Positions 4,496-37,855 of a stretch of DNA of 64,000 bases are shown one piece after another. The position numbers and the translations under genes are program-made. Where the stretch lies: assembly GCA_030654175.1 (NCBI GenBank), contig JAURXZ010000049.1, forward strand, positions 92,334 through 156,333, given 5' to 3'. Under the pieces are notes generated by a model. That model worked only from the letters and a program-made list of their open reading frames with translations, made no database searches and was not told the DNA's origin. Positions within the stretch are counted from its first letter, which is position 1; the number at the start of each line of letters is the position of its first letter. This DNA comes from Bacteroidia bacterium (GTDB lineage Bacteria; Bacteroidota; Bacteroidia; 2-12-FULL-35-15).

Positions 4496-4603
4496 GGGCG
4501 TTCCACTTTCTTAAACAAGAAAGTGTCGGGCTTTTCACTTCAATCTTTCCTTTCGCCAGCTGGCGACAGGAAAGGATTTTCGTTTCAATCCCTAACGCAG
4601 CAT
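4496..4603 (-). repeat. Copy A of the dispersed structured intergenic element (about 100 nt), minus orientation
   Basis: Shares GCGTTAGGGATTG..AAATCC..ATTGAAG..AAAGCCCG..hairpin..AACGCCC blocks with copies at 8483, 25198, 33823 and 37758. Confidence 0.8.
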
Positions 4604-4799
4604 ATCCCTGAAAGAACCAACATTTAATATATTTTACTTTTGGGACCAAAAGCTTGCTTTTTTTTATCTTTTTTTGGCTAAAAAATCTACCCCTGACCTG
4701 GATTAAAGTATAAATAAATCCTAATTTTTTTGTACTTTTGTATTCCTAAAAATCAAAATCCCGATAGTTATCAGGATACTAAATTAAAAATTTCACAAA

Positions 4800-6953: not shown

Positions 6954-7017
6954 CGAATAACGAATTTCCCGAATAACGAATAAATACAGATTCGTTATTC
7001 GGGAAATTCGTTATTCG
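6954..7017. promoter_or_regulatory. Perfect 28-bp inverted repeat (cgaataacgaatttcccgaataacgaat / attcgttattcgggaaattcgttattcg, 8-nt loop) between clpP and clpX
   Basis: Read directly from the sequence. The arms are also internally repetitive (cgaataacgaat occurs twice per arm). Confidence 0.5.
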
Positions 7018-7036
7018 CTGGAAAATTTGTAAAAAA

Positions 7037-8287
7037 ATGGCAAAAGAAGAAAAAGAAATAAAATGTTCATTCTGTGGACGCAAGAAACAAGAAACGGAAG
7101 TACTCATTGCGGGTATCACCGGGCATATTTGTAATCACTGCGTTACTCAGGCTCAAACCATAGTGCGTGATGAAGCAAGCCAGAATTCAGGTGCTTCCAT
7201 CTTTAATGCATTGCATCTCCTGAAGCCAATGGAGATTAAAAAACATTTGGATGAGTATGTGATCGGCCAGGATGAGGCAAAAAAAGTTCTGTCAGTAGCT
7301 GTTTATAACCATTACAAACGTTTGATTAAAAGTCAGTCGAAAACAGCTCAGAAAGATGAAGTGGAGATCGATAAATCAAATGTGATAATGGTAGGTGAAA
7401 CAGGAACAGGTAAAACATTGTTGGCGCGAACCATTGCAAAAGTACTTAATGTACCTTTTTGCATTGCAGATGCAACAGTGCTTACCGAAGCTGGTTATGT
7501 TGGTGAAGATGTGGAAAGTATTTTATCACGTCTTTTGCAAGCTGCCGATTTTGATGTTACTGCTGCCGAAAGAGGAATTGTATTTATTGATGAGATCGAT
7601 AAGATAGCGCGTAAAAGCGATAATCCTTCTATCACCCGTGATGTTTCAGGTGAAGGTGTTCAGCAAGGTTTATTGAAATTACTGGAAGGTTCAGTTGTAG
7701 GTGTTCCACCACAAGGCGGACGTAAACATCCTGAACAAAAAATGATACAGGTAAATACGAAGAACATATTATTTATTTGTGGCGGAGCTTTTGACGGGAT
7801 CACCAGGAATATCGGAAAACGCTTGCAAACACAAGCTATCGGTTATAATGTAAACAAAGAAAAAGTTAGCATTGATACTGATAATTTATTGCAATATGTT
7901 TCGCCTCAGGATCTAAAAAGTTTTGGTTTAATACCTGAATTAATAGGTCGTTTGCCGGTATTAACTTATTTGAATCCTTTGGATGCGGATACGTTACGCA
8001 GGATTTTGAGCGAGCCCAAAAATGCATTAATAAAACAATATTTGCATTTGTTTGAAATGGATGGTGTAAAAATCACATTTGAAAAAGGTGTGTTGGATTT
8101 TATTGTAGAGAAAGCAATGGAATTTAAGTTAGGTGCACGTGGTTTACGTTCGATTTGCGAGGCTATCATGATGGATCTGATGTTTGATACCCCTTCTGAT
8201 GCAACTGTGAAGGAGGTTAACCTGACACTGCGTTACGCTAAAGATAAACTCAAAAAATCAACTTTGACGAAATTGAAAGTTGCGTAA
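7037..8287 (+). CDS. clpX: ATP-dependent Clp protease ATP-binding subunit ClpX
   Basis: N-terminal C4 zinc finger (CSFCGR...CNHC). Walker [12 protein letters not shown]+ sensor motifs. 416 aa. Confidence 0.95.
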
Positions 8288-8330
8288 AGGAAATTAATAG
8301 TTACTATTCCTGTTTATAATTATTTTATAA

Positions 8331-8358
8331 TGCCCCCTCTTTCAAGGGGGCATTTTTA
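8331..8358 (+). terminator. Rho-independent terminator after clpX (tgccccct-cuuuca-agggggca + T-run)
   Basis: 8-bp GC-rich stem followed by tttttatt. Confidence 0.75.
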
Positions 8359-8482
8359 TTGATATAAATTCGTTAAATTCGTATCAAGAAATTGCGCTAA
8401 CAATTGAAACTTAAAAATCGGAGTCCGATTGTTAAGTTAGGCTAAAGCCCAATAAAAGCTGACAAATTCTCTTTCACTGAAA

Positions 8483-8580
8483 ATGCTGCGTTAGGGATTG
8501 CAGCGTAAATCCTTTTCTGTTTAGAAAAGATTGAAGCGGAAAGCCCGCCCCTTTCTTTTTTCAAAGAAAGGGGAACGCCC
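8483..8580 (+). repeat. Copy B of the dispersed structured intergenic element, plus orientation
   Basis: Same conserved blocks as the other four copies. Confidence 0.8.
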
Positions 8581-8686
8581 TAATGAAAAAGGTTTTAAAC
8601 AAATTATTTTTATTTTATTAATCGAACTCAGCTTAAAAATTAATATCCTATTGGGGAAATTTAATTTGTGATAACAAAAACAAAAA

Positions 8687-11600
8687 ATGAGTGAAAAGAT
8701 TCTGAAAGCATTGATGCGACTGTTCGCTATCATTGCTAAATCTGACGAAAATACTGTTGATGCTAAAAGTGTAGTTGAATCTTATTTGAAACAACAACTT
8801 AATAAAGAGCAGGTGCAAGAGTACCTTGCTATTTATGAAGGTTTTTTAAAATTGCAGGATGAGGGAGCACAGGGGGAGAAGAAAAAAAGACGTTTGGCGG
8901 TTAGTTCTGTTAAAGTAATTGTTATTTGTGATCAGATAAATGAGGAACTGACTCAAAAGCAGAAATTTATTGTTTTGTTGAATCTTATTGAATTTGTAAG
9001 TTCAAATGGTTCCATTTCTGAGCAGGAAATGGAGTTCATATATACTGTTTCTTCCTCATTTAAAATTCCTGATGAAGAATTTAACCAGTGTTTGTCTTTA
9101 GCATCAAAAAATACTATTTCAGAGATTGAAGATTCTCAAAATTTTCTTGTTATCAGTAATCAGAAAAACAGATCGATTGCGCCTTCTCAAATTTCTTTGG
9201 AGGCTAACACGCAAAAGTTATATTCTGAATCCATAATAGGCGATCTGGCTGTTTTACATATTAAAAGTATAGGAATATATCTTATTCGCTATTATGGCGA
9301 TGCAGAACTGTTTTTAAACGGACAAATTATCACTCCTCATAAAATTTATGTTTTATCACAAGGCTCTTCCATTCGAAGTTCAAAAGTTCAGCCAATTTAT
9401 TACAGCGATATTGTATTTGCTTTCTCCAATGATCTTTCGGAAAGTAAAATTGTGTTCGCTGTAAATGATATTGATTTTAAATTTAAAAGTGGACACATAG
9501 GATTGCATAAGCTAAACTTTACTGAAAATTCAGGAAAGCTGATCGGTATTATGGGTGGGAGCGGGGCTGGGAAATCCACGCTGCTTAATATTTTAAATGG
9601 TAACAATACCCCTTCATCAGGAGAGGTCCTGGTAAATGGACATGATCTTCACCAGGATAAAAAAGAGCTGGAAGGTGTAATTGGATATATTCCTCAGGAT
9701 GATCTATTGATTGAAGAACTTACCGTTTATCAAAATTTATTTTATAATTCTAAATTATGTTTTGACGACTATTCGGATGAAAAAATTGATCGGATGGTTA
9801 TTGAAATGCTCAATGATTTGGGCCTCTATGAAACGAAGGACCTAAAAGTTGGTAATTCACTTGATAAAACTATAAGTGGGGGACAACGAAAAAGATTAAA
9901 CATTGCTTTGGAGCTAATTCGGGAGCCTTCAGTATTGTTTGTTGATGAGCCCACCTCGGGGCTGTCTTCAAGGGATTCGGAAAATATAATGGATCTGCTC
10001 AAGGAGCTTTCGCTGAAAGGAAAACTTATTTTCGTTGTGATCCATCAGCCTTCTTCTGAAATTTTTAAAATGTTTGATAAGCTTCTTATCCTTGATGTTG
10101 GTGGTTATCCTATTTACAATGGTAACCCTGTGGAATCGGTGATCTATTTTAAAACCCTTATCAACCAGGTGAATGCGAATGAAAGTGAATGTAATACTTG
10201 CGGTAATGTAAATCCTGAACAGATATTTAATATTATTGAATCAAAAGTATTGGATGAAAATGGCAATCAAACAAGATTAAGAAGAATATCTCCAAAAGAG
10301 TGGAATGAATTTTATATTTCTAAAAACACTGTTAATCCGTCTATTTCAAAGGACACTGCCAAACAACCAATAAAAAACACGTTTAAAAAACCGAATTTTT
10401 TAAACCAATTCAAAGTATTCACTACCCGTGATGTATTATCGAAATTGTCGAATACACAATATCTTTTTATAAATCTTTTAGAGGCGCCTCTGCTTGCCTT
10501 AATTTTAGCCACGCTTATCAAATATTATAAAAACGATCAGAATTATTTATTTTCTGATAATAAAAATATGCCGGCATATATTTTTATGTGTGTGATCGTT
10601 TCTTTATTCATAGGCCTTACCGTTAGTGCGGAGGAAATTATCAGGGACAGGAAAATTTTAAAACGGGAATCGTTTTTGAATTTGAGTAAAGGAAGTTATT
10701 TAACTTCTAAAATACTTATCCTGTTTTTTATTTCCGCCATTCAAACGATAACTTTTGTTTTAATAGGGAATTATATTTTAGAGATCAAAGGAATGTATTT
10801 GGATTATTGGATGGTTTTATTCACTGCTTCTTGTTTTGCAAATATGTTGGGGTTGAATATTTCATCAGCATTTAATTCAGCCGTAACCATTTATATTTTG
10901 ATTCCCTTTTTGTTGATCCCGCAAATATTATTAAGTGGAGTAATTGTGAAGTTCGAAGAATTAAATCCTAAAATCTCCAGCCAGTCGTTGGTGCCATTTT
11001 CAGGAGAGATAATGACCTCACGATGGGCATTTGAGGCTTTGGCTGTTAACCAGTTTGTAGATAATAAGTATGAGAAACAAATTTATAATTATGAAAAAGA
11101 AATAAGCAATGCCAGTTTTAAAAAAGTGTATTGGTTTTCGAAAATGAATGAACTGGTAGATGCTCTTGAAAATAAAAAGGCCGTTTCTTTAAATTTGGAA
11201 ATTTTAAAACACGAAGTAGATCAGGAAATGAAAGCTATTCCGGAAATAATATTTGCTTCTTTGAATAATATGGATGCTGGAAATATTGATGAAAACTTAA
11301 TTAATGAGTTAAAAGAATACCTGGTAAAAGTGAAGGACCACTATTCTCAAAAATATGAAAAGGCCGTTAAGAGCAAGGATGAATGGATGAGTGGATTTCA
11401 AGGAAATGATTTACATAAGGCAGAATATCAGCAGTTGCTGAGCAATTACCAAAATTCAAAAATTGAAGATCTTTTAAAAAATGCAGGTTCTGATCTGGAT
11501 GAGGTCGTTGAAAGTGATGGAAAACTGATCGCTACCGGAGATCCTATTTATAGAGATGGACCCAAGGATCATTTTATACGCTCGCATTTTTTTTCGCCAA

Positions 11601-13706: not shown

Positions 13707-14192
13707 ATGACAGTACAAGAATTTAATAAGACTGTTGATTTATATGCAGATAATCTGTATCGGTTTATCCTTAAAAATATTAAGGATTCTGAAAAAGCGC
13801 GTGATATTGTGCAGGATACTTACGAAAAAATGTGGTTAAAGGTATCTGAGGTGGAATCTACAAATGCCAAATCCTATATGTTCACTGCGGCATACCGCAC
13901 AATGATAGATCGTATCAGACGTGATAAGAAACAAGGTGACCTGTCCGAATCAAATATGCATAGTTTAAGCCATAACAATCATTACAGTGATTTGAAAGAG
14001 ATATTGAATGAAGCTTTAACAAAACTACCCGAAATACAACGTTCTGTTATTTTATTACGCGATTATGAGGGGTACAATTATTCTGAAATAGGTGAAATTA
14101 CCGGATTAAATGAATCTCAGGTTAAGGTGTATATTTTTAGGGCTAGAGGTTTTTTGAAAAATTATATTGGAGCGATGGAGAATGTGATGTAA
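13707..14192 (+). CDS. ECF (group IV, sigma-24 type) RNA polymerase sigma factor
   Basis: Region 2 (DIVQDTYEKMW) and region 4 HTH (VILLRDYEGYNYSEIGEITGLNESQVKV); 161 aa. Confidence 0.85.
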   Translation: MTVQEFNKTVDLYADNLYRFILKNIKDSEKARDIVQDTYEKMWLKVSEVESTNAKSYMFTAAYRTMIDRIRRDKKQGDLSESNMHSLSHNNHYSDLKEILNEALTKLPEIQRSVILLRDYEGYNYSEIGEITGLNESQVKVYIFRARGFLKNYIGAMENVM

Positions 14193-14315: not shown

Positions 14316-15629
14316 ATGAATATCAACAAAAATAACTACGAAGCATATTTCCTTGATTATCACGAGGGAAATCTGACACCTGTTCAGGTGGCGGACTTGC
14401 TGTTTTTTGTTGAACAGCATCCTGAATTAAAAGAGGAATTTGAAAATTTTGAAAATTTTTCACTTGAAGATTTTTCTTCTATTGAATTTGCAAACAAATC
14501 AAGTTTGAAGAAAGAAATCACACTTGATAATAAAGAAGAATATTTTATAAGAGCAGTAGAAAATGAGTTGAATCCTACTGAAATTACCTTATTGAAGAAT
14601 TTCTTAAAACAATATCCTCAATTTTTGGTTGATCTTGAATTGTTTCAAAAAACAAAAATTTCTCTTGATACTTCTATCCTTTTTGAACATAAAAACGGAT
14701 TAAAAAGAGCTGTTTTTACTAAATCCGGGTCCGATTTGTCCGAGGCCGATGAGTTATTGATTAGCTCAATTGAAGGGCTATTAAGTCCAATGGAGATCAA
14801 TTTATTGAATGAACGTTTAGTTGAAGATAAAGAAATAGCGGAAAAATTTGTTTTATTTAATCAAACAAAACTCATTGCTGATAGATCTATCGTTTTTGAA
14901 GGTAAAGAAAGCTTAAAACATAAATCTAATAAACTCATTCCGTTTTACTATTATATTTCAGCAGCGGCAGCTATAATACTATTGTTTGGCTTGTTCTTTT
15001 TATTTAATAATGATACTATCCAACCTGAATTGGCTATTAAACTGCCAGTTATAAACAATAAAAAAACAGAATTAATTGAAAGCCCGGCTTTAGTGGAAAA
15101 TAAAGTTGTAAAAATAAAAACGCAACCAATTAACACCATTGCGTTGGTAGCGAAAAAAGAAAAATCAAAAACAATAAATTTGAATCTTAAGGATTCTCTT
15201 TTGACTTCTCCTGTGGTGGTTCCCGATTTATTAATAGCATCAAATAAAGGGATCGTAGAATCATTTATGGGTACGGATACTTTACTGGTTAAACCTAGCA
15301 AGATTGAGCAATTAGCCGATAATCGAATTGAAGTTGCAAAAGCGGATAAAAAAAGCGAAACGGAGAAACCAACCGAATTCCTTTCTATTCCTGAATTAGC
15401 AGTTGAAAAAATCAAAGAAAAATTATTAGATAAAAATGCAATTGCTGCACAAAAGAAAAGCGGTAATTTAAAAAAAGTTACTGGTTGGGATATCGCACAA
15501 GTGCTTACAACCGGTATAAGTAAACTTACAGGTCGCGAAGTTGAATTAAAACCTTACTATAATGATGAAGGTGCCGTAACCGCTTATGCGCTTAATGCAG
15601 GTGCATTTCAGATTTCAAGAGGGAGATAA
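14316..15629 (+). CDS. Putative anti-sigma factor / single-pass membrane protein cognate to the ECF sigma
   Basis: Immediately downstream of the ECF sigma. One TM helix (LIPFYYYISAAAAIILLFGLFFLF). No recognisable FecR domain. Confidence 0.45.
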   Translation: MNINKNNYEAYFLDYHEGNLTPVQVADLLFFVEQHPELKEEFENFENFSLEDFSSIEFANKSSLKKEITLDNKEEYFIRAVENELNPTEITLLKNFLKQYPQFLVDLELFQKTKISLDTSILFEHKNGLKRAVFTKSGSDLSEADELLISSIEGLLSPMEINLLNERLVEDKEIAEKFVLFNQTKLIADRSIVFEGKESLKHKSNKLIPFYYYISAAAAIILLFGLFFLFNNDTIQPELAIKLPVINNKKTELIESPALVENKVVKIKTQPINTIALVAKKEKSKTINLNLKDSLLTSPVVVPDLLIASNKGIVESFMGTDTLLVKPSKIEQLADNRIEVAKADKKSETEKPTEFLSIPELAVEKIKEKLLDKNAIAAQKKSGNLKKVTGWDIAQVLTTGISKLTGREVELKPYYNDEGAVTAYALNAGAFQISRGR

Positions 15630-15728
15630 ATGTAATATTTAAATTATAGTTTTTTTAAACAATTGAATTTAGGTGTTTGCAGAAAACGTAATTTGCATTA
15701 AATTTCGGAATCTTAATAAATTTATAAC

Positions 15729-15983
15729 ATGATGAAAAAACTACTATTTACTATAATAGTTGTTTTTATTGGTTTTGTAGTAAAGGGTCAAAACAGGTGG
15801 TCACAAAAAATTAACTTTTCTGCTACCGCTAAAATAATTGGTAAGGTTGGAAAAACCGCAGAAAAGGTAAGTAAAAATGCCCCGGGACTAGTTGGGAAAA
15901 CTGCAAAAATAATTAGTACAACAGCAAAAGTAATGAGTGCAAGCGCGCAGAAGGCGAGCGAAGCGAAAAATAGTAAACAATGA
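15729..15983 (+). CDS. Small secreted lysine-rich repeat protein (hypothetical)
   Basis: Signal peptide plus repeated GKTAEKVSK / GKTAKIIS units; 84 aa. Confidence 0.35.
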   Translation: MMKKLLFTIIVVFIGFVVKGQNRWSQKINFSATAKIIGKVGKTAEKVSKNAPGLVGKTAKIISTTAKVMSASAQKASEAKNSKQ

Positions 15984-16039
15984 TCTTCCTGTTTTTTCGA
16001 GAAGTTATTTCTCACTAACTCTTTTCCGGTATTCTGGGT

Positions 16040-18247
16040 TTAAATTCTTATTCCAATCACAAGTATATCATCAATTTGTTCATTTGTATCTTTCCATTTT
16101 TCAATGAAATCCTCAAGGAAAATTCTCTGCTCATCCATTTGTTTTTGTTGAATGCTTAAAAAAATTTCTTTGAATCTTTTTGTCATTAGTTTTTCATCTG
16201 AACTACTAAACTGGTCAGCATATCCATCCGAAAAAATGTAAATGCAATCACCTTTCATTAGTGATACCTTAGTTCTGGTAAATTTCCGTTCTGTTTCCGA
16301 CTGAGCTCCACCAATGGCAAATTTATTTCCTTTTATTTCTGTTAGTTGGTAGTTGTTCTGGAATGAGCCCGTATTGAGTGAAATCGAAGTGCTGGTGGAA
16401 GTCCCATTATCAATTGTTAATTCTCCTTTATCAATTTTTTTAATGATCCACAACGGTCTTTGCGCACCTGCAAATTCAATTTCGGTATTGGTGATAAAAG
16501 TGATCAAAGAAATATCCATTCCATCTTTCGATTCACTTTGCTCTTCCTGCTTTAATGTTTTGCGTATTTCTTTGTGAAGATGATTTAGAATTTCATCGGG
16601 AGAAGTAATTCCTTTTTCATTCACGATCTGATTTAGAATATTGTTGCCGATCATACTCATTAATGCGCCAGGTACTCCATGTCCAGTACAATCGCAGGCT
16701 GCAATTAATTTTCTTCCGTCCTTTTCTGCAAACCAATAAAAATCACCACTTACAGTATCTTTCGGTTTAAATAAAATAAAAGAATCGGGAAACAGGACGT
16801 GTTTGAATTCTTTGGTCGGAAGAATCGCATCCTGAATAGTTTTTGCATAATCTATGCTGTCGGTGATGTCTTTATTTTTTTCTTCAATTATTTTTTTTTG
16901 CTCCACAATTTCCGAGGTTCTTTCTTTAACCTGTATTTCAAGTGTTTCCTTTTGAGTTTCAAGGATTTTTTGTTTTTCTTTCTCCTGTTCAAGGTTCTTT
17001 TTCGAAAGCGATTCTACTTCTGTTAACTTCTTTTTAAGGATCTTATTCGTTGTTGAAAATTGTTTAGCTAAGTATAACGACATCGAAACAGGGATACTCA
17101 TGGTGGCGAAGGTGAATAATATCTGAGGCAGATAGCCGGAAAAATTTCCATCATTAGGTATCAGTGTTATGGCTGCAACAAATAATATGAAAATAGCTAC
17201 GCCAATACCAATGATCGTTGAGCCTTGTTTTTTATTTATAAGAGCAATTATTACCACTCGTATAACTTCTATAATTGTCAGGCCAATAAAAAAATAAGAA
17301 ATTTTGTCAGTGTATTCCCATTGAAATAAAATAAAGAAAAAATTAAGGGCACCAATAACCAGTGGAAACCAAAATGCTTTTGGGATTCGTTCGTAAAAAA
17401 TAGAATAAACAAGCATGATCAGGGATATTAATAAAACCGGAATCAGTTCGCTTGAGAGATTATCAAACCAGTCAAACAACGCTGCATCTTTTACACTTGT
17501 CTGAAAAAAAGGAGCTAGTGCGTAAAAGGAGAGGAGAGACGCAAATAAAAAATAAAAGAAATTACTTTTATTTGCTCTGTAAAATAGAAAGATGAACAGG
17601 TGTGCAATACCAAGTGCAATAATAAAACCAAAAGGGAAGATACTTTTTACATCTGTGTTCACACTTTCATTGAAAGTATTCACAATTTGTTCATTAGCAG
17701 GAAACAGAAAAACCCGAAATCCTTTGCCGTAATTTATATTCCTGTTATAGCCCGATTTGTGGTTGGAATAACGGATCGCTAACACATATTCATTTCCCGG
17801 GATAATATTTAACGCTACAGGAATAAGATTGGGATAATACCTTTCTTCTTCTTCAGGATCTGAACTTACTGTACCAAAGTTTATAAGTTTTTGTCCATTA
17901 AAATAGATCTCTGAAGCACTTGCCTGCAATATACCAATCGCTAAAGGGAAGGATGCCAGTGAGCTGTCAAAATTCAAATGTAAACGAAACCAGCCTATGC
18001 CTTTAAAATTTGTGTCATCAAGGCTGCCAATGTTAATTGTATCCCAGGCTGTGTCGTCAAAATCTTCATTAGCCCATAAAGTGTCATCGCCCTCATGAAA
18101 TTTCCAGTAGGTATCTAATTCAACTCCTGAAGCGTTTTCGCTATCGATTGTAAAAACATTGGTTTCCTGAGCTCCTGATAAATAGAAAGAAGCCAATAGA
18201 ATAAATAAAATGATTTTTTTTATCATTGAGTTTAAAAATAGTTGCAC
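16040..18247 (-). CDS. 7TM receptor with extracellular 7TMR-DISMED2 domain and cytoplasmic PP2C/SpoIIE-type Ser/Thr phosphatase (paralog 1)
   Basis: Signal peptide. N-terminal carbohydrate-binding-like domain. Seven TM helices. Coiled coil. PPM motifs (GDFYWF, ACDCTGHGVPGALMS, SDGYADQF). Confidence 0.8.
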   Translation of the reverse strand: MQLFLNSMIKKIILFILLASFYLSGAQETNVFTIDSENASGVELDTYWKFHEGDDTLWANEDFDDTAWDTINIGSLDDTNFKGIGWFRLHLNFDSSLASFPLAIGILQASASEIYFNGQKLINFGTVSSDPEEEERYYPNLIPVALNIIPGNEYVLAIRYSNHKSGYNRNINYGKGFRVFLFPANEQIVNTFNESVNTDVKSIFPFGFIIALGIAHLFIFLFYRANKSNFFYFLFASLLSFYALAPFFQTSVKDAALFDWFDNLSSELIPVLLISLIMLVYSIFYERIPKAFWFPLVIGALNFFFILFQWEYTDKISYFFIGLTIIEVIRVVIIALINKKQGSTIIGIGVAIFILFVAAITLIPNDGNFSGYLPQILFTFATMSIPVSMSLYLAKQFSTTNKILKKKLTEVESLSKKNLEQEKEKQKILETQKETLEIQVKERTSEIVEQKKIIEEKNKDITDSIDYAKTIQDAILPTKEFKHVLFPDSFILFKPKDTVSGDFYWFAEKDGRKLIAACDCTGHGVPGALMSMIGNNILNQIVNEKGITSPDEILNHLHKEIRKTLKQEEQSESKDGMDISLITFITNTEIEFAGAQRPLWIIKKIDKGELTIDNGTSTSTSISLNTGSFQNNYQLTEIKGNKFAIGGAQSETERKFTRTKVSLMKGDCIYIFSDGYADQFSSSDEKLMTKRFKEIFLSIQQKQMDEQRIFLEDFIEKWKDTNEQIDDILVIGIRI

Positions 18248-18252
18248 CGATT

Positions 18253-20427
18253 TTAAATTCGTATACCGATCACTAATATATCATCGATCTGTTCACGAGC
18301 CCCTCTCCATTTTTCTATAAAATCAGAAAGAAAAATTTCCTGTTCGGTCATTGATTTTCGCTGTACGCCTATAAGAAGCTCTTTGAATCGGGACGTCATT
18401 AATTTATTGTCTATATCGCTGAATTGGTCAGCATATCCATCAGAGGAAATATAAATACATTCTCCTTTCGATAATGAAATTTTATGATTTGTAAATTTCC
18501 TTTCTGTTTCAGATTGCCAGCCACCAATAGCAAATTTGTCACCTTTTGTTTCTGTTAATTGTGGGAGCATTTCATTATCAATTAGTAATTCTCCATTATC
18601 AATTTTTCTTACGATCCACAAAGGTCTTTGTGCACCTGCAAATTCAATTTCTGTTTGGCTATTAAAAGTAATAATGGCAATATCCATTCCGTCCTTCGTT
18701 TCATTTTGTTCTTCCTGATTTAATGTTTTTCGGATTTCTTTGTGCAGGTGATTCAGTATTTCGTCAGGAGAAGTAATTCCTTTTTCATTCACGATCTGAT
18801 TCAGTATATTGTTACCGATCATACTCATCAAAGCTCCAGGTACCCCGTGTCCGGTGCAATCGCAAGCTGCAATTATTTTTTTATTGTTCTTTTCAGCAAA
18901 CCAAAAAAAATCTCCGCTTACAATGTCTTTTGGTTTAAATAATATAAATGAATCCGGAAAAAGTTTGTTTTTCAGTTCATTTGAAGGAAGGATGGCTTCC
19001 TGTATCGTTTTAGCATAGTTGATACTATCAGTAATGTCTTTATTCTTTTCTTCAATAACCTTTTTTTGTTCAACAATTTCCGAAGTACGTTCTTTAACCT
19101 GAATTTCAAGTGTTTCCTTTTGTGTTTCTAATATTTTCTGCTTTTCTTTTTCCTGTTCAATGCTTTTTTCTGAAAGGGTTTCAACTTCAACAAGTTTTTT
19201 CTCCAGATTGTTATTCGTCATTGCGAATTGCCTTGCAAGGTATACCGACATAGAGACAGGAATACTTATCAATGCCAGAAAAATCAAAACAATAAAAAAA
19301 ATGGAATGAATTGAAAAATTGCTATTCGCCATAATTACAATAAGAATAAACCCTAAAAAAAGCAAGAAAATAAGAGATCCTGTTCCAATGATCCATGCAC
19401 CATCTATTTTTTTTCTGATGGACTTGATGACCATAAAGAACGAAGCTACAACTGTACTTATAATGAAACTAAAAAGTAAATATTCTGTAAAATTGTTGTT
19501 ACGGAAAATCAATGCAATGAGCAATGCGATCAAAATTAGAGTCGAGAACCAAAAATATTTGGTGACTGGCCTTTTAAAGAGAGAATAATGCAGTACAAGC
19601 AGGGCATAAAAAAATGAGCTCAGAAAAAACCAAAAATAGTAATTGAGTGTTATGGTGAGCTCGGGGTTAAATGAATTGAAGCTGATTGTTGGAATAAAAA
19701 AAATGGATCCAAATAAAAAAACAAATATGCTATAGTACAGATTTGTTATATGTTTTCTATAAAAGAGAAAAAACAATAGGTGCACAAAACCCAGCGATAA
19801 AAAGAATATTCCAAGTACCACAGCAATTGAAGTAATAATAATGCGGGTAACAAATTTTTCTTTAACGGAATCGTCTTGTTTGGCAATTTTGATTGTGAAG
19901 CCCGGATTATTTGTATGGTATTTTTCAAAATAGTTTTGATAATCTAAATTAGAATACCTTATTGCCAGGATGTGCTCTCCTGCCGTAGCATTACTGAAAG
20001 TAAGAGGGATTTCGTTTGGATTGTATTTTTTTTCTGTATTTGGATTTGCAGAAACCGTTCCCAACGAATGAATAAGTTTACCATCCAGAAAAATTTGTGA
20101 TGCACCATCCTGGTTCACCAATAGGGCCAATGGTGTATCCTTTAAAGAAGAATCTATGTAAATATGAATCCTGAACCAGCCAATGCCTTTGAAATCAGTT
20201 GAATCGTTTTCATCAAATTTTAAACTCGTATTTATTGTACCCCAGGTGCTATCGTTAAAATATGAAGATGCCCAGGTAGAATCATCTCCATTGTGGAATT
20301 TCCAGAATTTATCAAGAGCAATTGTCTCGATAGAATCTATTTTGGGTATCCTTAAAACATTTTTATTTTGAGCCGGCAGTAAAGCAGCGATTGAGAAGAA
20401 ACAAAGTAAGAGAAGGATTTTTTTCAT
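18253..20427 (-). CDS. 7TM receptor with 7TMR-DISMED2 domain and PP2C/SpoIIE phosphatase (paralog 2, tandem duplicate)
   Basis: Same architecture as 16040-18247. The coiled-coil and phosphatase segments are near-identical at the protein and DNA level. Confidence 0.8.
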   Translation of the reverse strand: MKKILLLLCFFSIAALLPAQNKNVLRIPKIDSIETIALDKFWKFHNGDDSTWASSYFNDSTWGTINTSLKFDENDSTDFKGIGWFRIHIYIDSSLKDTPLALLVNQDGASQIFLDGKLIHSLGTVSANPNTEKKYNPNEIPLTFSNATAGEHILAIRYSNLDYQNYFEKYHTNNPGFTIKIAKQDDSVKEKFVTRIIITSIAVVLGIFFLSLGFVHLLFFLFYRKHITNLYYSIFVFLFGSIFFIPTISFNSFNPELTITLNYYFWFFLSSFFYALLVLHYSLFKRPVTKYFWFSTLILIALLIALIFRNNNFTEYLLFSFIISTVVASFFMVIKSIRKKIDGAWIIGTGSLIFLLFLGFILIVIMANSNFSIHSIFFIVLIFLALISIPVSMSVYLARQFAMTNNNLEKKLVEVETLSEKSIEQEKEKQKILETQKETLEIQVKERTSEIVEQKKVIEEKNKDITDSINYAKTIQEAILPSNELKNKLFPDSFILFKPKDIVSGDFFWFAEKNNKKIIAACDCTGHGVPGALMSMIGNNILNQIVNEKGITSPDEILNHLHKEIRKTLNQEEQNETKDGMDIAIITFNSQTEIEFAGAQRPLWIVRKIDNGELLIDNEMLPQLTETKGDKFAIGGWQSETERKFTNHKISLSKGECIYISSDGYADQFSDIDNKLMTSRFKELLIGVQRKSMTEQEIFLSDFIEKWRGAREQIDDILVIGIRI

Positions 20428-20789
20428 TGTTCTTCAAATATAATACATTATAATTTTATGAAGGAAAAAATGGTAGAATTCATTCTCGCTGAAATTTAAT
20501 ATACATTTCAATGCCACTGATTTTACTTATTAGTTTTTATAGGGAATGTTATCCCGATCCTGTTTTTACAGGAGAGGGATCTTGTCAATTATTGGCAGGA
20601 TTATTAAAAAAAAGCAGGATCCCTCCTTAGAAACTAGGGATAAAAGAAGGATACTCTTTCGCGAGATTAGAGCATACGTAGCACATTCAGTGTCAAATTA
20701 AAATAAAAGGGTATTTATCCAACATTATAATTTTTTTCTCGTACAAATGAATAATCTTTTGAAAAGCTCCAAACTTAATCCAGAAAGAT

Positions 20790-23700
20790 ATGAAAAACTC
20801 TACTATTAATTCCCGGATACTTTGTTGCAAATGGTTAATAGGATTGTTACTTGTTGTTTTCTTTTTTAGTGATTTTCAAAAGCTACAAGCGCAATGTACA
20901 GCACCTGTTGCGAACTCATCACCGTCTTCTCAAACTATTTGCTCCGGAACTTCCCCCTCAATTGTTTTGTCAAGTAATATTTCTGGAACCACTTTTTCAT
21001 GGACAGTTCTTCAAAATGGCGTTTCAGGTGGCAATAATTTTTCTTTAATAACATCACAAATTTTAACTGCAACCGGCACTAATGCCGGTACCGCTGTGTA
21101 TACAGTCACTCCCTCTGCTAATGGTTGCACAGGTTCACCCATAACAGTTACTATAACTGTTATGGGCGTAGTAAGCGGTGGTACCATTGCTGCCGCTCAA
21201 ACAATATGCAATGGAGGAGACCCCGCTGCTTTTACAGAAAGTACGCCATCTAGCGGTTCCGGTACACTTACATACGAGTGGAAATTCAGCACCGATGGGT
21301 TTGCTGCGACTTTGGCAACAACTCCAACGTATGATATTCCAGCAGGTGTGAATGCTTCTGCCTATTACAGGCGAATAACTACAAATACATTAAACGGCTT
21401 AAGTTGTACTGTTAACAGTAACGATATAATAGTTACAGTAATTTCAAAACCAACTGTACTTACTGTGAACCAGACTTTATGCCCTCCTGCAACTGCGGAT
21501 ATTACCTCACCATCAGTTACCTTAGGTTCCACTGGTGGCTTAACCTATTCTTACTATACAGATGCCTTGGCAACAATTTCTTATGCCACTCCTTCAGCCG
21601 CAACAGCTGCAACATATTATATTGTTGGCATAGCTGGAGGAGGTTGCTCTGATACAACAGCAGTAAGTGTAACTGCAAGCCAATTTCCTGTTGCTATCGC
21701 TAGCCCTTCTTCTCAAACTATTTGCGATTGCGGTGTAGCTGCGATAGCATTGTCAAGTAATATTTCTGGAACCACTTTTTCCTGGACTGTAATGCAATCA
21801 GGAGTTTCCGGAGCTTCGGCTGGATCTGGGAGTACAATAGCACAAATGTTATGTACAACTGGTCCTTTTGTAAGTAATGCAATTTATACAATTACCCCTA
21901 CTGCTAATGGTTGTGTAGGAAATTCAATAAATGATACGATAACAATTACCCCATCCCTTAATGTTATTGCTACACCTCAGGCACAAACTGTATGCTCTGG
22001 AAATAGCACATTAATTGCTTTAAGCAGTAATGTCTCGGGTACTGTCTTTTCATGGACCGTGGCTCAAACAGGCGTTACAGGTGGTGCTACAGGAACAGGT
22101 AATACAATTTCACAATCATTATCAACCACCGGGACTATTGCAGGAACTGCTGTTTATACTATTACTCCTTCGTTAAACGGATGTGCCGGAACTGCTATTA
22201 ATGTTTCAATTACCATTAATATTAATGATGATGCATCTTTTTCTTACCCATCAGCAACCCATTGCCAAACAGGCACTAACCCAACACCATCTATTACTGG
22301 TTTGGCAGGAGGTGCATTTTCATCAAGCCCAGCTGGTTTACAAATTAATTCATCAACAGGTATAATTGATTTAGCAACAAGTTCACTGGGTACATATTCT
22401 GTTACCTATACAACAAATGGTATTTGCCCGAATACAAATTCAATAACAATGACGATTACGGTCGCACCTTCTGCGAGTTTCAGTTATACAGGTTCTCCGT
22501 TTTGTAAAAATGTAAATAATCCTTTTCCAACATTTGCTTCAGGCGCAAGCGCGGGTGCATTTTCTGCTATTCCTACAGGCTTGGTTTTTGTAAATGTGAA
22601 TACAGGTGAGATTGATTTAGCGGCAAGTATGTCAGGAACCTATACCATTACTAATACCATTCCTGCAAATGGGGGATGTGCCGCTGCAATCGCAACAACT
22701 ACGGTTATAATAAACGCTATGGATGATGCAGCTTTTGCTTATTCATCAGGAACCTATTGTACATCCGGTACTAATCCAAGTCCCACAATAACGGGCTTAG
22801 CCGGAGGAACGTTTTCATCTGTTCCGGCAGGTTTATCAATTAATCCATCAACAGGTACAATCAGTTTATCTACAAGTTCATTGGGTGCATATACCCTTAC
22901 CTATACAACAAATGGTAATTGCCCAAATACTAATTCATCAACTAATACTGTTATAGCCACACCATCCGCTAATTTTAGTTATTCGGGTTCTCCATTTTGT
23001 CAAAATGCAAATAATTCATTTCCAACATTCGGTTCAGGTGCAAGCGCTGGTACATTTTCATCTACTCCTTCAGGCTTGGCTTTTGTAAATGTGAATACTG
23101 GCGAGATTGATTTATTTGTAAGCCTACCGGGAACCTATACAATTACAAATACAATACCTGCAAATGGTGGATGTGCCGGTGTAATCGCGACAACTACAAC
23201 TACTATAATTCCTATGGATGATGCTTCTTTTACATATTCTTCAGGAACCCATTGCACATCAGGCAATAACCCAAGTGCAACAATAACTGGATTACCCGGA
23301 GGCTCGTTTTCATCTGTTCCGGCAGGTTTAACAATTAATCCATCAACGGGCATGATTGATTTAGCACTAAGTGCAGCAGGCACATATTCTGTTACCTATA
23401 CAACAAATGGTAATTGCCCCAATACAAATTCTATAACTATTACTATTACAGTTGCTCCTTCTACAAATTTCAGTTATTTCGGTTCTCCGTACTGCCAATA
23501 TTCAAATAATCCATTGCCAGGATTCGGCTTTGGTGCAAGCGCAGGTATATTTTCAGCCACTCCTTCAGGTTTAGTATTTGTAAACGTGAATACCGGCCTG
23601 ATTGATATAGTTTTAAGCGCCCCCGGCATTTATACTATTACAAATAACATTCCTGCAAATGGAGGATGTGCCTCTGCAAGTTCAACGGCTATGATTCAAA

Positions 23701-25109
23701 TTAACAGTTGCGGTATAATAACCGGTTCTGTGTATAAAGACAATAATGCCAATTGTATAATGGATTCAGGCGATCTAGGCATGTATCATATTCCTGTAAA
23801 GCTATATGACAATAATAATAATTTCTTAAGCATAAGATACCCTTGGAATGGTAGTTATCAATTTTTAGCACCTTTAGGAACTTACTCAGTTAAAATTGAT
23901 ACTGCAAACCTTCCATTTACGGTTCAATGTCTTTATCCGGGAATTGATACTATCCTTAACTTAACCGGTGGAAATCCAGCAGCTACCAATGTTAATTTTG
24001 GAATTGTTTGTAAATCAGGGTTTGATGTGGGGGTTGGTGGGGTGTTTCCATCTGGAACTGTTTTTCCTGGAGTACAGCATAAATTGCAGATTGGCGCAGG
24101 TGATATGGTCCAAATGAATTGGTATTGGTATAATTTTAGTTGTGCAGCAGCAATTAGTGGCCAGGTGCAGGTTACAGTGACTGGTCCTGTCACATATAAT
24201 GGCATTGTTCCAGGGGCACTTACGCCATCTGTATCTGCTAATGTCTTTACTTACTCCATAGCAGACTTTGACCAAATAAATAATTGGCAAGATTTCAGAT
24301 TAAAGTTTACCACAAATACTTCTGCACAAGCAGGAGACCAAATATGTGTGAATGTTGTCGTTACGCCAACCATTGGAGATAATAATGTAAGTAACAATAC
24401 CTTTTACTTTTGCTACCTCGTTGGGAACTCCTACGATCCCAATATGAAAGAAGTATATCCTGTAAATGTAGCACCAGCTTACCAGGATTGGTTTACCTAT
24501 ACTATTCACTTTCAAAACACAGGCAATGCTCCTGCTATGAATATTCGTTTAGCAGATACACTGGATGCTAATTTAGATTTTGAAACATTCGAGGTAATTA
24601 ATTACAGTGATTCAATAGACGTTTCATTGGATAATAATTTGCTGAATTTCCATTTTCCAAATATTATGTTACCTGATAGTACCAGTGATCCTGAAGGTTC
24701 TAAAGGCTATGTACAATATCGTGTAAAGCCGAAAGCAAATTTACCGGCCGGTACACAAATAAAAAATACAGCCTATATTTATTTTGATTACAATGCCCCT
24801 ATTGTGACCAACACTACAATAAATGAATTTGTAGAGCCTGCTTCAATAAGTGAAAATAAATCATCAGGTACTTTAAGTGTATATCCAAATCCCGGTAATG
24901 GTAAGTTTAAAATACAAATGGACAATGGACAATTATCAATGGACAATTATCAATTATCAATTTATAGTGTTCTCGGAGAGAAAATTTTTCAATCTGAGAT
25001 CAAAAATCTGAAATCCGAAATTGATATAAGCCATCAGCCGAATGGCATTTATATCATAAGAGTAAATGATGGTATTCAATCGCTAAATCATCGTTTAATA
25101 AAGCAGTAG
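20790..25109 (+). CDS. Large repeat-rich secreted protein with C-terminal T9SS type-A sorting domain
   Basis: Signal peptide. At least eight Cys-containing Ig/PKD-like repeats. DUF11-like 'conserved repeat' region (YDPNMKEVYP...HFQNTGNAPA). C-terminal T9SS sorting domain (SVYPNPGNG...GIYIIRV). Confidence 0.8.
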   Translation: MKNSTINSRILCCKWLIGLLLVVFFFSDFQKLQAQCTAPVANSSPSSQTICSGTSPSIVLSSNISGTTFSWTVLQNGVSGGNNFSLITSQILTATGTNAGTAVYTVTPSANGCTGSPITVTITVMGVVSGGTIAAAQTICNGGDPAAFTESTPSSGSGTLTYEWKFSTDGFAATLATTPTYDIPAGVNASAYYRRITTNTLNGLSCTVNSNDIIVTVISKPTVLTVNQTLCPPATADITSPSVTLGSTGGLTYSYYTDALATISYATPSAATAATYYIVGIAGGGCSDTTAVSVTASQFPVAIASPSSQTICDCGVAAIALSSNISGTTFSWTVMQSGVSGASAGSGSTIAQMLCTTGPFVSNAIYTITPTANGCVGNSINDTITITPSLNVIATPQAQTVCSGNSTLIALSSNVSGTVFSWTVAQTGVTGGATGTGNTISQSLSTTGTIAGTAVYTITPSLNGCAGTAINVSITININDDASFSYPSATHCQTGTNPTPSITGLAGGAFSSSPAGLQINSSTGIIDLATSSLGTYSVTYTTNGICPNTNSITMTITVAPSASFSYTGSPFCKNVNNPFPTFASGASAGAFSAIPTGLVFVNVNTGEIDLAASMSGTYTITNTIPANGGCAAAIATTTVIINAMDDAAFAYSSGTYCTSGTNPSPTITGLAGGTFSSVPAGLSINPSTGTISLSTSSLGAYTLTYTTNGNCPNTNSSTNTVIATPSANFSYSGSPFCQNANNSFPTFGSGASAGTFSSTPSGLAFVNVNTGEIDLFVSLPGTYTITNTIPANGGCAGVIATTTTTIIPMDDASFTYSSGTHCTSGNNPSATITGLPGGSFSSVPAGLTINPSTGMIDLALSAAGTYSVTYTTNGNCPNTNSITITITVAPSTNFSYFGSPYCQYSNNPLPGFGFGASAGIFSATPSGLVFVNVNTGLIDIVLSAPGIYTITNNIPANGGCASASSTAMIQINSCGIITGSVYKDNNANCIMDSGDLGMYHIPVKLYDNNNNFLSIRYPWNGSYQFLAPLGTYSVKIDTANLPFTVQCLYPGIDTILNLTGGNPAATNVNFGIVCKSGFDVGVGGVFPSGTVFPGVQHKLQIGAGDMVQMNWYWYNFSCAAAISGQVQVTVTGPVTYNGIVPGALTPSVSANVFTYSIADFDQINNWQDFRLKFTTNTSAQAGDQICVNVVVTPTIGDNNVSNNTFYFCYLVGNSYDPNMKEVYPVNVAPAYQDWFTYTIHFQNTGNAPAMNIRLADTLDANLDFETFEVINYSDSIDVSLDNNLLNFHFPNIMLPDSTSDPEGSKGYVQYRVKPKANLPAGTQIKNTAYIYFDYNAPIVTNTTINEFVEPASISENKSSGTLSVYPNPGNGKFKIQMDNGQLSMDNYQLSIYSVLGEKIFQSEIKNLKSEIDISHQPNGIYIIRVNDGIQSLNHRLIKQ

Positions 25110-26792: not shown

Positions 26793-28286
26793 ATGGCAAA
26801 CATAAACATTAAAAAACCTCTTCATAAACTGATGGTGGAAGCCTCTGATGATGAAAAGGGATTGAAACGTACACTTACAGCCGGAAATTTAATTGCATTA
26901 GGTATTGGAGCAATTATTGGGGCGGGCTTGTTTGTGAGAACAGCATCAGCAGCTGCTAATAATGCCGGTCCATCAGTAACAATAGGTTTTATTGTTGCAG
27001 CAATTGGTTGTGCATTAGCCGGTCTGTGTTATGCTGAGTTTGCTTCTATGATACCTATTGCTGGTAGTGCTTATACTTATTCTTATGCAACGATGGGTGA
27101 ATTGGTTGCCTGGATCATCGGTTGGGATCTGGTGCTGGAATACGCTTTGGGGGCAGCAACTGTTGGGATCGCCTGGAGTGAATACCTGAATAAGCTGTTG
27201 GAATATTTCGGGATGCGAATACCCTATGAATGGTGCCATTCTCCTTTTGAAAAGTTAACAGATGCGGCCGGAGTGGTAACCAGTCATGGTATGATGAATA
27301 TTCCTGCGTTGTTTATTATTATTTTACTTTCATTCCTCCTTATAAAAGGTACAAAAGAATCAGCATGGGTAAACGGTATAATTGTAATTACTAAAGTTGC
27401 AATTGTAATATTGTTTATTCTTTTTGGCTGGTCATATATTAATCCGCTTAATCATACTCCATATATTCCTGAAGCTACTATTTACACTGATTCATCGGGA
27501 CTAGACCATAGTTATGGTGGAATAATGGGAATATTAGGTGCTGCAGGTGTTGTGTTTTTTGCCTTCATTGGTTTTGATGCTGTTTCAACGGCTGCTCAGG
27601 AAGCAAAGAATCCTAAGCGTGATATGCCTATTGGTATATTAGGTTCATTGGCAATTTGTACTATATTATATATTTTATTTGCACACGTTTTAACAGGCGT
27701 TGCATCGGTTGATGATTTTAGAAATAACGGACGTGAAGCATCTGTTACCTATGCTATAAATACATATATGCTTGAGTATGGTTGGCTTGCTAAATTAGTA
27801 ACTGTTGCAATTTTGGCAGGTTTTTCTTCTGTTATTTTGGTAATGTTAATGGGGCAATCCCGTGTGTTTTATTCAATGAGTGTGGATGGTCTTGTGCCTA
27901 AAATGTTTTCTGATCTGCATCCTAAGTACAGAACCCCTTATAAATCTAATTTATTCTTTTTAGGATTTGTAGGAATATTCGCAGCTTTTGTACCGGGTGA
28001 TATTGTTGGAGATATGACAAGTATCGGAACTTTATTTGCCTTCATTTTAGTATGTGCAGGGGTATGGATCATGCGTGTGAAAAATCCGGATGTTCCCCGT
28101 CAATTCAAAACACCTTTAGTACCTCTTGTTCCAATTTTAGGAATAATTGTTTGTGGTGCAATGATCTTTGGATTAGGCTGGCCAAATTGGGTAAGATTAG
28201 GTATTTGGATGGTGATAGGCATCATCATTTATTTTGCTTACGGTATAAAAAACAGTAAATTAAATAATCCGGATAAGGATAAATAG
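26793..28286 (+). CDS. APC-superfamily amino acid permease (cationic amino acid transporter-like)
   Basis: 12 predicted TM helices; glycine-rich TM1 (ALGIGAIIGAGLFV); 497 aa. Confidence 0.85.
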   Translation: MANINIKKPLHKLMVEASDDEKGLKRTLTAGNLIALGIGAIIGAGLFVRTASAAANNAGPSVTIGFIVAAIGCALAGLCYAEFASMIPIAGSAYTYSYATMGELVAWIIGWDLVLEYALGAATVGIAWSEYLNKLLEYFGMRIPYEWCHSPFEKLTDAAGVVTSHGMMNIPALFIIILLSFLLIKGTKESAWVNGIIVITKVAIVILFILFGWSYINPLNHTPYIPEATIYTDSSGLDHSYGGIMGILGAAGVVFFAFIGFDAVSTAAQEAKNPKRDMPIGILGSLAICTILYILFAHVLTGVASVDDFRNNGREASVTYAINTYMLEYGWLAKLVTVAILAGFSSVILVMLMGQSRVFYSMSVDGLVPKMFSDLHPKYRTPYKSNLFFLGFVGIFAAFVPGDIVGDMTSIGTLFAFILVCAGVWIMRVKNPDVPRQFKTPLVPLVPILGIIVCGAMIFGLGWPNWVRLGIWMVIGIIIYFAYGIKNSKLNNPDKDK

Positions 28287-33739: not shown

Positions 33740-33822
33740 AATACTCTACGAATTACTATTTTAACGAATTACTATTTTAACGAATTAAAAATTTGTATTA
33801 AATTGCTACTCTCCAGGCTAAT

Positions 33823-33912
33823 GTCGCGTTAGGGATTGCAACGAAAATCCTTTTCTGTTTAGAAAAGATTGAAGTGTAAAGCCCGCCCTTTCTTTTTCAA
33901 GAAAGGAACGCC
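33823..33912 (+). repeat. Copy D of the dispersed structured intergenic element, plus orientation
   Basis: Conserved blocks as in the other copies; lies between two minus-strand genes. Confidence 0.8.
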
Positions 33913-37757: not shown

Positions 37758-37855
37758 GGGCGTTTCCTTTCTTAAAAGAGAAAGGACCGGGCTTTCCGCT
37801 TCAATCTTTTTGAGAAGAACAAAAAGGATTTCTGCTGCAATCCCTAACGCAGCAT
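37758..37855 (-). repeat. Copy E of the dispersed structured intergenic element, minus orientation
   Basis: Conserved blocks as in the other copies. Hairpin stems differ from them by compensatory substitutions. Confidence 0.8.

Follow-up and report, generated by a model that had tools for sequence, protein, structure and literature searches.

Two tandem receptors with divergent jelly-roll sensors and SiaA-like phosphatase outputs in a Bacteroidia genome: an old gene pair rather than a recent or converting one

How can two neighboring genes encode receptors whose sensor halves differ widely while their output halves are much alike? The question is raised by two adjacent genes, here called A and B, in a stretch of 64,000 nucleotides (nt) from a Bacteroidia bacterium (contig JAURXZ010000049.1, hereafter the window). 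The initial annotation of this DNA attributed the likeness to a recent duplication or to ongoing gene conversion of the output module. We find that A and B are probably an old tandem duplicate pair, whose output modules have stayed about 80% alike through strong purifying selection and not through either of those processes, and we consider this the explanation that best covers the observations as a whole. The two genes are:

18253-20427, minus strand: gene B, a 724-amino-acid (aa) seven-transmembrane (7TM) receptor with a SiaA-like PPM phosphatase and a B-type sensor, first of the tandem
16040-18226, minus strand: gene A, a 728-aa paralog with an A-type sensor, 3' of gene B

The two minus-strand open reading frames (ORFs) first reported, of 735 and 724 aa, are real. 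The listed ORF of gene A covers 16040-18247 and begins with a GTG at 18247 (735 aa), and the ATG at 18226 (728 aa) is more likely the true start, matching P0032 and the MIKKI... start of the orthologs. P0032, a 728-aa NCBI protein from a metagenome-assembled genome (MAG), is 100% identical to gene A from the ATG at 18226 and is labeled "SpoIIE family protein phosphatase [Bacteroidia bacterium]". As only 26 nt separate the stop of gene B from the start of gene A, the two genes are probably co-transcribed, with B first.

Pfam, hydropathy and an AlphaFold2 (AF2) model concur on the domain order: signal peptide, beta-sandwich ectodomain, seven transmembrane (TM) helices, long helix and PPM phosphatase. 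With PF07228 (SpoIIE), A scored 49.2 bits and B 49.3 bits (cut-off 25), which makes both members of the PPM/SpoIIE domain family. With PF07695 (7TMR-DISM_7TM), gene A scored 35.9 bits, over the cut-off of 29. In the full-length model of the B protein (mean predicted local distance difference test [pLDDT] 79.8), a signal helix precedes the beta-sandwich ectodomain (aa ~24-183). The TM helices number exactly seven, and the last of them runs on as a helix to about aa 434; after a low-confidence break come a helix at aa 449-479 and an alpha/beta PP2C fold. The hydropathy of gene A, with seven hydrophobic segments between aa 196 and 387, agrees with this model. The low-confidence break in this monomer model is what would be expected for a dimeric coiled coil. 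The membrane blocks lie as follows:

19234-19848, minus strand: seven-TM block of gene B, aa ~194-398 (AF2 helices from H184-222 to H376 onward, hydropathy, PF07695)
17066-17680, minus strand: seven-TM block of gene A, aa ~183-387 (hydropathy, PF07695 at 35.9 bits)

The description of the pair as paralogous 7TM receptors in tandem, whose PPM phosphatase looks catalytically competent, is thus right. Receptors of the 7TMR-DISM type with a PPM output are an already known kind of protein, and finding a recognizable, uncharacterized sensor-phosphatase pair that NCBI has already labeled is ordinary and of small weight. Our refinement consists of the SiaA-like output and the sensor fold of the sugar-binding type found in glycoside hydrolase family 2 (GH2).

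Divergence between the two genes is strongly non-uniform along their length, and the statement that the ectodomains have diverged while the output modules remain alike holds. The N-terminal modules share 46.3% of their nucleotides and about 31% of their amino acids, as against 77.4% and 79.5% for the C-terminal modules. The switch falls at the end of TM7, at the motif SIPVSMS (17098 in A, 19266 in B), and delimits two output modules:

18253-19266, minus strand: output module of gene B (TM7 end, signaling/dimerization helices, PP2C), 79.5% aa and 77.4% nt identical to that of A
16040-17098, minus strand: output module of gene A, on the same evidence, with the match to 6K4E (E = 5.8e-32) and the metal-site motifs described below

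What had drawn attention to these modules was a tract described as almost identical even at the DNA level. A 33-aa peptide, EQEKEKQKILETQKETLEIQVKERTSEIVEQKK, is indeed identical in proteins A and B, which sustains the protein half of that description. The DNA half did not hold: the paired coordinates given for the tract were 2 nt out of register, and at the right register (+2168) positions 16890-17000 are 83.8% identical (93/111 nt). A string quoted with two differences actually has 9 in 63 nt, AGA/CGT, ACC/ACT and GTG/GTT being among those missed. The two copies are:

16892-16990, minus strand: 33-aa helix EQEKEKQKILETQKETLEIQVKERTSEIVEQKK, gene A copy, 85/99 nt identical to the B copy
19060-19158, minus strand: 33-aa helix EQEKEKQKILETQKETLEIQVKERTSEIVEQKK, gene B copy (aa 424-456), at the TM7-extension helix and the low-confidence break

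The codons for these 33 residues differ between A and B at 14 of 99 nt, in each case synonymously. No exact DNA match between the genes is longer than 35 nt. The peptide is a family feature: 43 of 120 relatives carry it with at most four mismatches, several other 90%-cluster representatives have it unchanged, and an alignment of 29 sequences shows no variation at most of its positions. We therefore read the eye-catching identical tract as a product of purifying selection.

The comparison with relatives covered eight related contigs that carry orthologs (L081-L088; L086 belongs to MAG GCA_040384245.1 and L081 to MAG GCA_036170475.1). Conversion was tested with windowed Nei-Gojobori proportions of synonymous (pS) and nonsynonymous (pN) differences, the longest exact run, permutations, ortholog/paralog quartets and bootstrapped neighbor-joining (NJ) trees. 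A recent duplication or ongoing conversion, holding the outputs alike while the sensors diverge, would agree with the sharp jump in identity at the end of TM7 (46% to 77% nt), with the 35-nt exact match, with a local dip of pS to 0.34-0.5 near alignment columns 560-620 and with a naive column shuffle, in which the longest run reached P = 0.038. Permutations that held amino-acid conservation fixed, however, revealed no tract (35-nt run, P = 0.11; best 30-codon synonymous window, P = 0.15), and within the 33-codon stretch every difference is synonymous.

Synonymous divergence argues in the same direction. Between A and B, pS was 0.643 in the C-module (pN 0.12) and 0.786 in the N-module. C-module pS was 0.30-0.39 for close orthologs (window against L086 and L085) and 0.58-0.64 for deep orthologs (against L081 and L087). 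The paralogs thus lie within the deep-ortholog range, at the saturation plateau of the module. Identical codons at conserved degenerate residues gave the same ranking, with 59.5% in the paralogs, 61-65% in deep orthologs and 81% in close orthologs. Nowhere did a tract show synonymous divergence far under that of its flanks and of the orthologs, which is the hallmark of gene conversion. The initial annotation had named uniform divergence along the genes as the observation that would argue against conversion; at synonymous sites, which are saturated, divergence is uniform, though not at the protein level. The C-modules are alike because selection preserves the protein.

The history of the tandem can also be read from its relatives. 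A B+A tandem with the same flanking genes is present in L086 and in L081, and C-module identity is 92% and 91% between orthologs as compared to 79% between paralogs. In C-module quartets, informative sites supporting same-genome, same-type and cross groupings numbered 1:35:1 against L086 and 0:22:2 against L082/L087; nucleotide informative sites against L086 favored the same-type grouping in each 50-codon bin. NJ trees placed the C-modules of the window's A and B in separate clades (91% and 86% bootstrap). Hence the duplication predates the split of at least three MAG lineages, and the concerted-evolution hallmark, paralogs nearer to each other than to orthologs, was not seen in the window lineage. 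Given the saturated synonymous sites, the permutations, the quartets, the tandems in other MAGs and the family-wide 33-mer, we regard a recent duplication or ongoing conversion as very improbable.

The output module itself has a well-defined closest solved relative, the PP2C domain of Pseudomonas aeruginosa SiaA (PDB 6K4E, E = 5.8e-32), and the alignment starts in the helical linker, N-terminal of the catalytic core. NCBIfam model NF038263 (SiaA) matched over model positions 380-657 with 181 bits for A and 191 bits for B. A SiaA equivalog is a full-length match of at least 700 bits, which neither protein is; the scores fall far below that value because the N-terminal halves are unrelated. SiaA serves as the phosphatase in a partner switch with SiaB and SiaC, which has been shown by experiment and controls the cyclase SiaD (PMC7647112). 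A and B share with it a homologous helical linker joined to PP2C and the same metal-site residues, including an unusual DC(T/A)GHG motif with C475. In the 6K4E structure the homodimer interface is made by the helices that precede the catalytic core, and this is where the 33-mer falls in A and B. The differences are that SiaA has its own membrane and HAMP region where A and B have a jelly-roll ectodomain and 7TM block, and that no siaBCD genes adjoin A and B.

Missing metal-binding aspartates would have spoken against phosphatase activity, but these residues are present. The metal-site motifs SGDF[YF], DCTGHG, GMD, DGYADQ and the C-terminal DD are intact in both proteins, and the equivalents of SiaA D457, D474/C475, D534 and D600/D604 are kept in A, in B and in 119-120 of 120 relatives; the C-terminal DD pair is invariant in the family alignment. 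Judged by these residues, both proteins are presumably active metal-dependent phosphatases. That one or both are instead dead pseudo-phosphatases that signal by binding has a negligible chance in our estimate. Nothing specific favors it apart from the moderate PF07228 scores (49 bits), and against it stand the conserved metal-coordinating motifs and the strong purifying selection.

The sensor side was examined on the isolated ectodomains:

19849-20370, minus strand: ectodomain of gene B, aa 20-193, a galactose-binding-domain-like jelly roll and predicted carbohydrate sensor
17681-18169, minus strand: ectodomain of gene A, aa 20-182, with the same predicted fold and ~40% identity to the B ectodomain

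Receptors of the 7TMR-DISM type are said to have been described by Anantharaman and Aravind in 2003, with RetS, LadS, NicD and RgsP as reported examples. A and B resemble them in the signal peptide, the extracellular all-beta domain, the seven TM helices (PF07695) and the variable cytoplasmic signaling module. The ectodomains had been called 7TMR-DISMED2-like. Pfam gave no match to either of them at E <= 10, DISMED1 and DISMED2 included, and we rejected DISMED2 membership on this basis. The profile of the A/B ectodomain family, whose alignment has invariant residues D29/W43/F60/W65/R67..., instead matched the GH2 N-terminal sugar-binding domain (E = 5.7e-11). In a Foldseek search with the AF2 model of the B ectodomain (pLDDT 90.2), the top 50 PDB matches were all GH2 N-domains, with many Bacteroides proteins among them (lowest E = 3.5e-8, TM-score ~0.5-0.6). 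The models therefore point to a jelly roll nearest to the GH2 sugar-binding domain, which is of the same general fold class as predicted for DISMED2, and suggest glycan sensing. A and B thus differ from known 7TMR-DISM receptors in an ectodomain that lies outside the DISMED1/DISMED2 Pfam models and closest to the GH2 N-domain, and in a PP2C output where the characterized members have a kinase or GGDEF/EAL. Ectodomains of 7TMR-DISM receptors have been predicted to bind carbohydrates, and several paralogs per genome are typical (PMC6107284); the jelly-roll ectodomain is consistent with that prediction.

The helix between membrane and phosphatase may also have a described counterpart, a conserved signaling helix that joins sensory domains to catalytic outputs, PP2C included (PMC1592074). 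The same paper names 7TMR-DISM in a separate list of detected domains and does not state a fusion to PP2C.

What would the phosphatases act on? We compared 88 Bacteroidota loci, and in about 10 of them a SiaB-family kinase gene and a SiaC-like gene adjoin a homologous PP2C gene. A contig scan for relatives, in which the best full-length match was 46%, served for SiaB/SiaC neighborhoods and not for ortholog tests. The SiaB-family neighbors are well supported (NF038262, 176 bits, cut-off 85; Pfam DUF6272). The phosphatases beside SiaB/SiaC-like genes carry TPR, Reg_prop/Y_Y_Y beta-propeller or HAMP-GAF-PAS sensors, and unlike SiaABCD the loci have no adjoining diguanylate cyclase in the genes examined. 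A literature search on partner switching, SpoIIE or SiaA in Bacteroidetes returned nothing specific.

From these comparisons we infer a scheme that runs from ligand class to substrate. Each periplasm-facing ectodomain would bind a ligand, probably a glycan, and the 7TM bundle and dimeric helix would relay the signal so as to switch the Mn2+/Mg2+-dependent phosphatase. The phosphatase may then remove the phosphate from Thr or Ser of a SiaC/STAS-type switch protein, and a kinase of the SiaB/DUF6272 type, with its gene elsewhere in the genome, would maintain that protein in its phosphorylated state. The two paralogs would provide two inputs into one partner switch, and such a common substrate would also explain why the output modules are held so similar. 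There is a precedent for this logic in Bacillus subtilis, where several input phosphatases (RsbU/RsbP, and RsbX) converge on the anti-anti-sigma factor RsbV. RsbU and RsbP are SpoIIE/PPM phosphatases with different N-terminal inputs and a conserved output; they are soluble proteins, and their genes lie together with those of their partners in the switch. The arrangement of several sensors feeding one phospho-switch protein fits the proposed scheme. A and B differ in being 7TM receptors with no partners nearby and in that their convergence on one substrate is a proposal. The SiaA-like output makes a SiaB/SiaC-type phospho-switch, and not a classical RsbV/SpoIIAA one, the system to seek in Bacteroidota. 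The GH2-type ectodomain suggests that glycan sensing, a central theme in Bacteroidota, may feed Ser/Thr phospho-signaling and not the well-known hybrid two-component or SusR/ECF routes.

Two of the partner loci hold longer arrays. L039 (894-12428) and L055 (144-11543) contain four to five tandem TPR-sensor/SiaA-like phosphatases ending at a SiaC-like gene, which in L039 is followed by the gene for a 361-aa protein that carries the DUF6272 (SiaB-like) domain twice. Like A and B, they combine a SiaA-like output (~43-45% identical) with tandem paralogs, diverged sensors and a mosaic of N- and C-modules; they differ in having TPR sensors and adjoining partner genes where A and B have a jelly roll, 7TM and no partners nearby. 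In three other loci a gene of ~280 aa lies between the sensor-phosphatase and the SiaB/SiaC-like genes (L015 8982-9812, L031 880-1725, L079 8879-9748); two of these lack a Pfam match and the one in L079 is a universal stress protein. They are candidates for the output of a Bacteroidota SiaABC-like switch.

Several results weigh against an old, selection-maintained pair that feeds a SiaC-type switch. Gene B scored 23.9 bits with PF07695, under the Pfam gathering score of 29; as gene B is homologous to gene A throughout, we counted it as a 7TMR-DISM_7TM protein with seven TM helices. In the 64-kb window we found no STAS, SiaB, SiaC, HATPase_c_2 or RsbW-type gene with Pfam and NCBIfam on the scanned ORFs of at least 100 aa (not every listed ORF) and with tblastn, for which 18 SiaB/SiaC-like proteins from Bacteroidota served as queries. 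The same Pfam scans found no GGDEF domain, and this locus holds no SiaA-type operon with siaB, siaC and siaD. The remark that no STAS or anti-sigma-antagonist partner is visible nearby is hereby extended to all 64 kb, the remaining content of which is housekeeping (recA, tig-clpP-clpX, permeases, the operon for ribosomal proteins, and a locus with a PAS hybrid kinase). No such partner lay within +/-7 kb of the orthologs in the eight related contigs either. The SiaC-like match to NF038265 (99 bits) is under the equivalog cut-off of 150, and the proposed substrate is derived from relatives at a greater distance, which carry TPR, beta-propeller or PAS/GAF sensors and not 7TMR-DISM. Three phylogenetic results belong here as well. 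The quartet of the window with L081 gave 2:6:4 sites in the C-module, which does not resolve the deep A/B split, against 3:85:3 in the N-module; the clade of all A C-modules had 21% bootstrap; and the A-B distance in the C-module is about 2.5-fold under the N-module-based, ortholog-calibrated expectation, so that purifying selection alone may not suffice.

These last points lead to an alternative that is partly compatible with our preferred explanation, namely that the pair is old and the family mosaic, ancient output conversion or sensor replacement having given the C-modules a younger common ancestor. We grant it a serious chance, somewhat short of even. The sensor halves fall into sharply separate types A, B and C, ~30% identical between types and 45-94% within. 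Orthologs of gene B occur in L085, L086, L084, L087 and L081 (94-64% identity) and those of gene A in L086 (93%), L082, L081 and L083. L084 and L087 have B only, L082 has A only, and in L083 and L088 a C-type gene is in the tandem, so that the upstream tandem slot holds a B-type or a C-type sensor depending on the genome. L088, a more distant relative, is one case. Sensor type governs the grouping of its N-modules (43:6:3 sites, with L083_C+L088_C at 100% bootstrap) and genome that of its C-modules (23:1:3 sites, with L088_B+L088_C at 100% bootstrap), and the discordance switches at alignment columns ~400-450, which is the TM7/helix junction. Elsewhere, the C-modules of P0018 and P0038 are each other's best match (79.6% identity), although the N-modules are 27.6% identical. 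In the TPR arrays the ortholog pair L039_8851/L055_4510 is 84.8% identical in C and 54.6% in N, a contrast that suggests sensor replacement. To these cases is added the L081 quartet, decisive in the N-module and not in the C-module.

On the other side, every such pair has reached saturation at synonymous sites (pS 0.77 for L088_B/L088_C), and co-evolution of both outputs with one common substrate per genome, an alternative explanation of the L088 pattern, could give the same clustering by genome. Same-contig pairs are few, the trees are NJ trees on ~340 sites, and P0075 and P0076, which lie on one contig, have C-modules that are only 58.6% identical. Ancient module exchange, be it output conversion or a sensor swap, is thus plausible from the alignments. 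Of the conversion idea, the recent or ongoing form fails, while a weaker deep-time form survives through the discordance in L088. Such module-level phylogenetic discordance could make the family a case study of sensor arrays evolving round a fixed output.

L085, the closest relative, offers an observation of its own. There (7001-10722, compared with 14316-20427 of the window) gene B (94%) is followed directly by the anti-sigma gene, without gene A or the small ORF beside it, which is a clean presence/absence difference. We considered whether this single B gene is a chimera of A and B from unequal crossover and rejected it, because the C-module of this gene matches the B type over its whole length (95.5% to B, 78.9% to A).

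Returning to the old tandem pair, the scheme can be stretched into a more speculative picture, which we put forward tentatively and think rather doubtful as a whole. Bacteroidota, mostly without SiaD-type cyclases, might run a widespread SiaABC-like switch fed by sensor-phosphatases with 7TM/jelly-roll, TPR, beta-propeller and PAS/GAF inputs. Modules would recombine at the TM7/helix junction, and output and dimerization helix would be kept uniform per genome to fit one SiaC-like substrate, perhaps with heterodimerization; A and B would be two glycan inputs.

The genes next to the pair suggest a different target, an extracytoplasmic function (ECF) sigma/anti-sigma pair:

13707-14192, plus strand: ECF sigma factor (Sigma70_r2/r4, Pfam)
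14316-15629, plus strand: 437-aa membrane protein, anti-sigma candidate, no Pfam or NCBIfam match

The pair had been placed immediately upstream of the receptors; it in fact sits past the 3' end of gene A, in convergent orientation. The sigma factor is near NF058625 (GFO_1088/PG0214 family; 118 bits, cut-off 130). This system might be the target of the phosphatases, which could, for instance, remove phosphate from the sigma factor or from the cytoplasmic portion of the anti-sigma candidate. The sigma factor, the 437-aa protein and a DUF2807 outer membrane protein are syntenic in the window, L081, L083, L085, L086 and L088, and no other candidate substrate is nearby. However, the convergent orientation means that the genes do not form one operon, L082, L084 and L087 keep the phosphatase and lack the sigma pair, and synteny among close relatives is expected from common ancestry alone. 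Furthermore, the nearest characterized output homolog acts on SiaC, and no kinase is encoded nearby. Beyond the close relatives only three further loci had an ECF sigma factor near a PP2C gene, which was differently built, and the association is not specific. We hence consider action on the ECF pair unlikely, and a functional link of A and B to the ECF system possible and weakly supported.

The cytoplasmic N-terminus of the 437-aa protein, which is kept with the sigma factor in five related loci, contains by eye about three repeats of ~45 aa (..L.P.E...L..FL...P....E...F..TK), of which a simple regular expression confirmed two only, at aa 28 and 92. Two further neighbors flank the receptor genes:

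15729-15983, plus strand: ORF convergent with gene A, encoding a secreted Lys/Ala-rich protein of 84 aa that has a signal peptide and a repeat-like tail
20790-25109, plus strand: 1439-aa PKD/DUF7619 protein secreted by the type IX secretion system (T9SS), divergent neighbor upstream of gene B

Wherever a relative carries an A-type gene, the 84-aa ORF, which has no Pfam or NCBIfam match, lies next to it, and L085 lacks both. Its copies in relatives, two of them in L083, are:

L081 9251-9505
L082 9339-9593
L083 9165-9419 and 13420-13674
L086 11447-11701

The slot upstream of gene B is variable. It holds a NIDO-domain protein in L083 (278-3781) and an M43 peptidase in L085 (3840-6818), and in L086 it is empty, so that CitMHS abuts gene B. 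Near the A-type gene of L082 (11303-13390, minus strand) lies a 695-aa protein that combines a GldL_N/GldM_1st-like part, related to the gliding/T9SS motor, with a SpoIIE domain. A sigma-70 promoter and terminator scan of 15500-20900 gave no more sites than shuffled sequence, with a model that is not suited to Bacteroidota promoters.

Elsewhere in the window, the Flavo-1 RNA motif (RF01705) occurs in four intergenic copies (51-56 bits, all over the gathering score), none of them near the phosphatase genes:

4520-4606, minus strand
8480-8554, plus strand
33821-33892, plus strand
37781-37852, minus strand

Two tandem ORFs of 126 aa (60704-61084 and 61077-61457, both minus strand; 51% identical, 8-nt overlap) resemble histidine phosphotransfer (Hpt) domains, with Hpt matches under the Pfam cut-off in both. 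Their neighbors are a LytTR response regulator (59720-60409) on one side and a PAS hybrid histidine kinase (61566-63983) on the other. The second pair of tandem paralogs in the window encodes amino-acid permeases (26793-28286 and 28347-29804, both plus strand) that are 28% identical to each other, and this pair is conserved in L084, L086 and L087.

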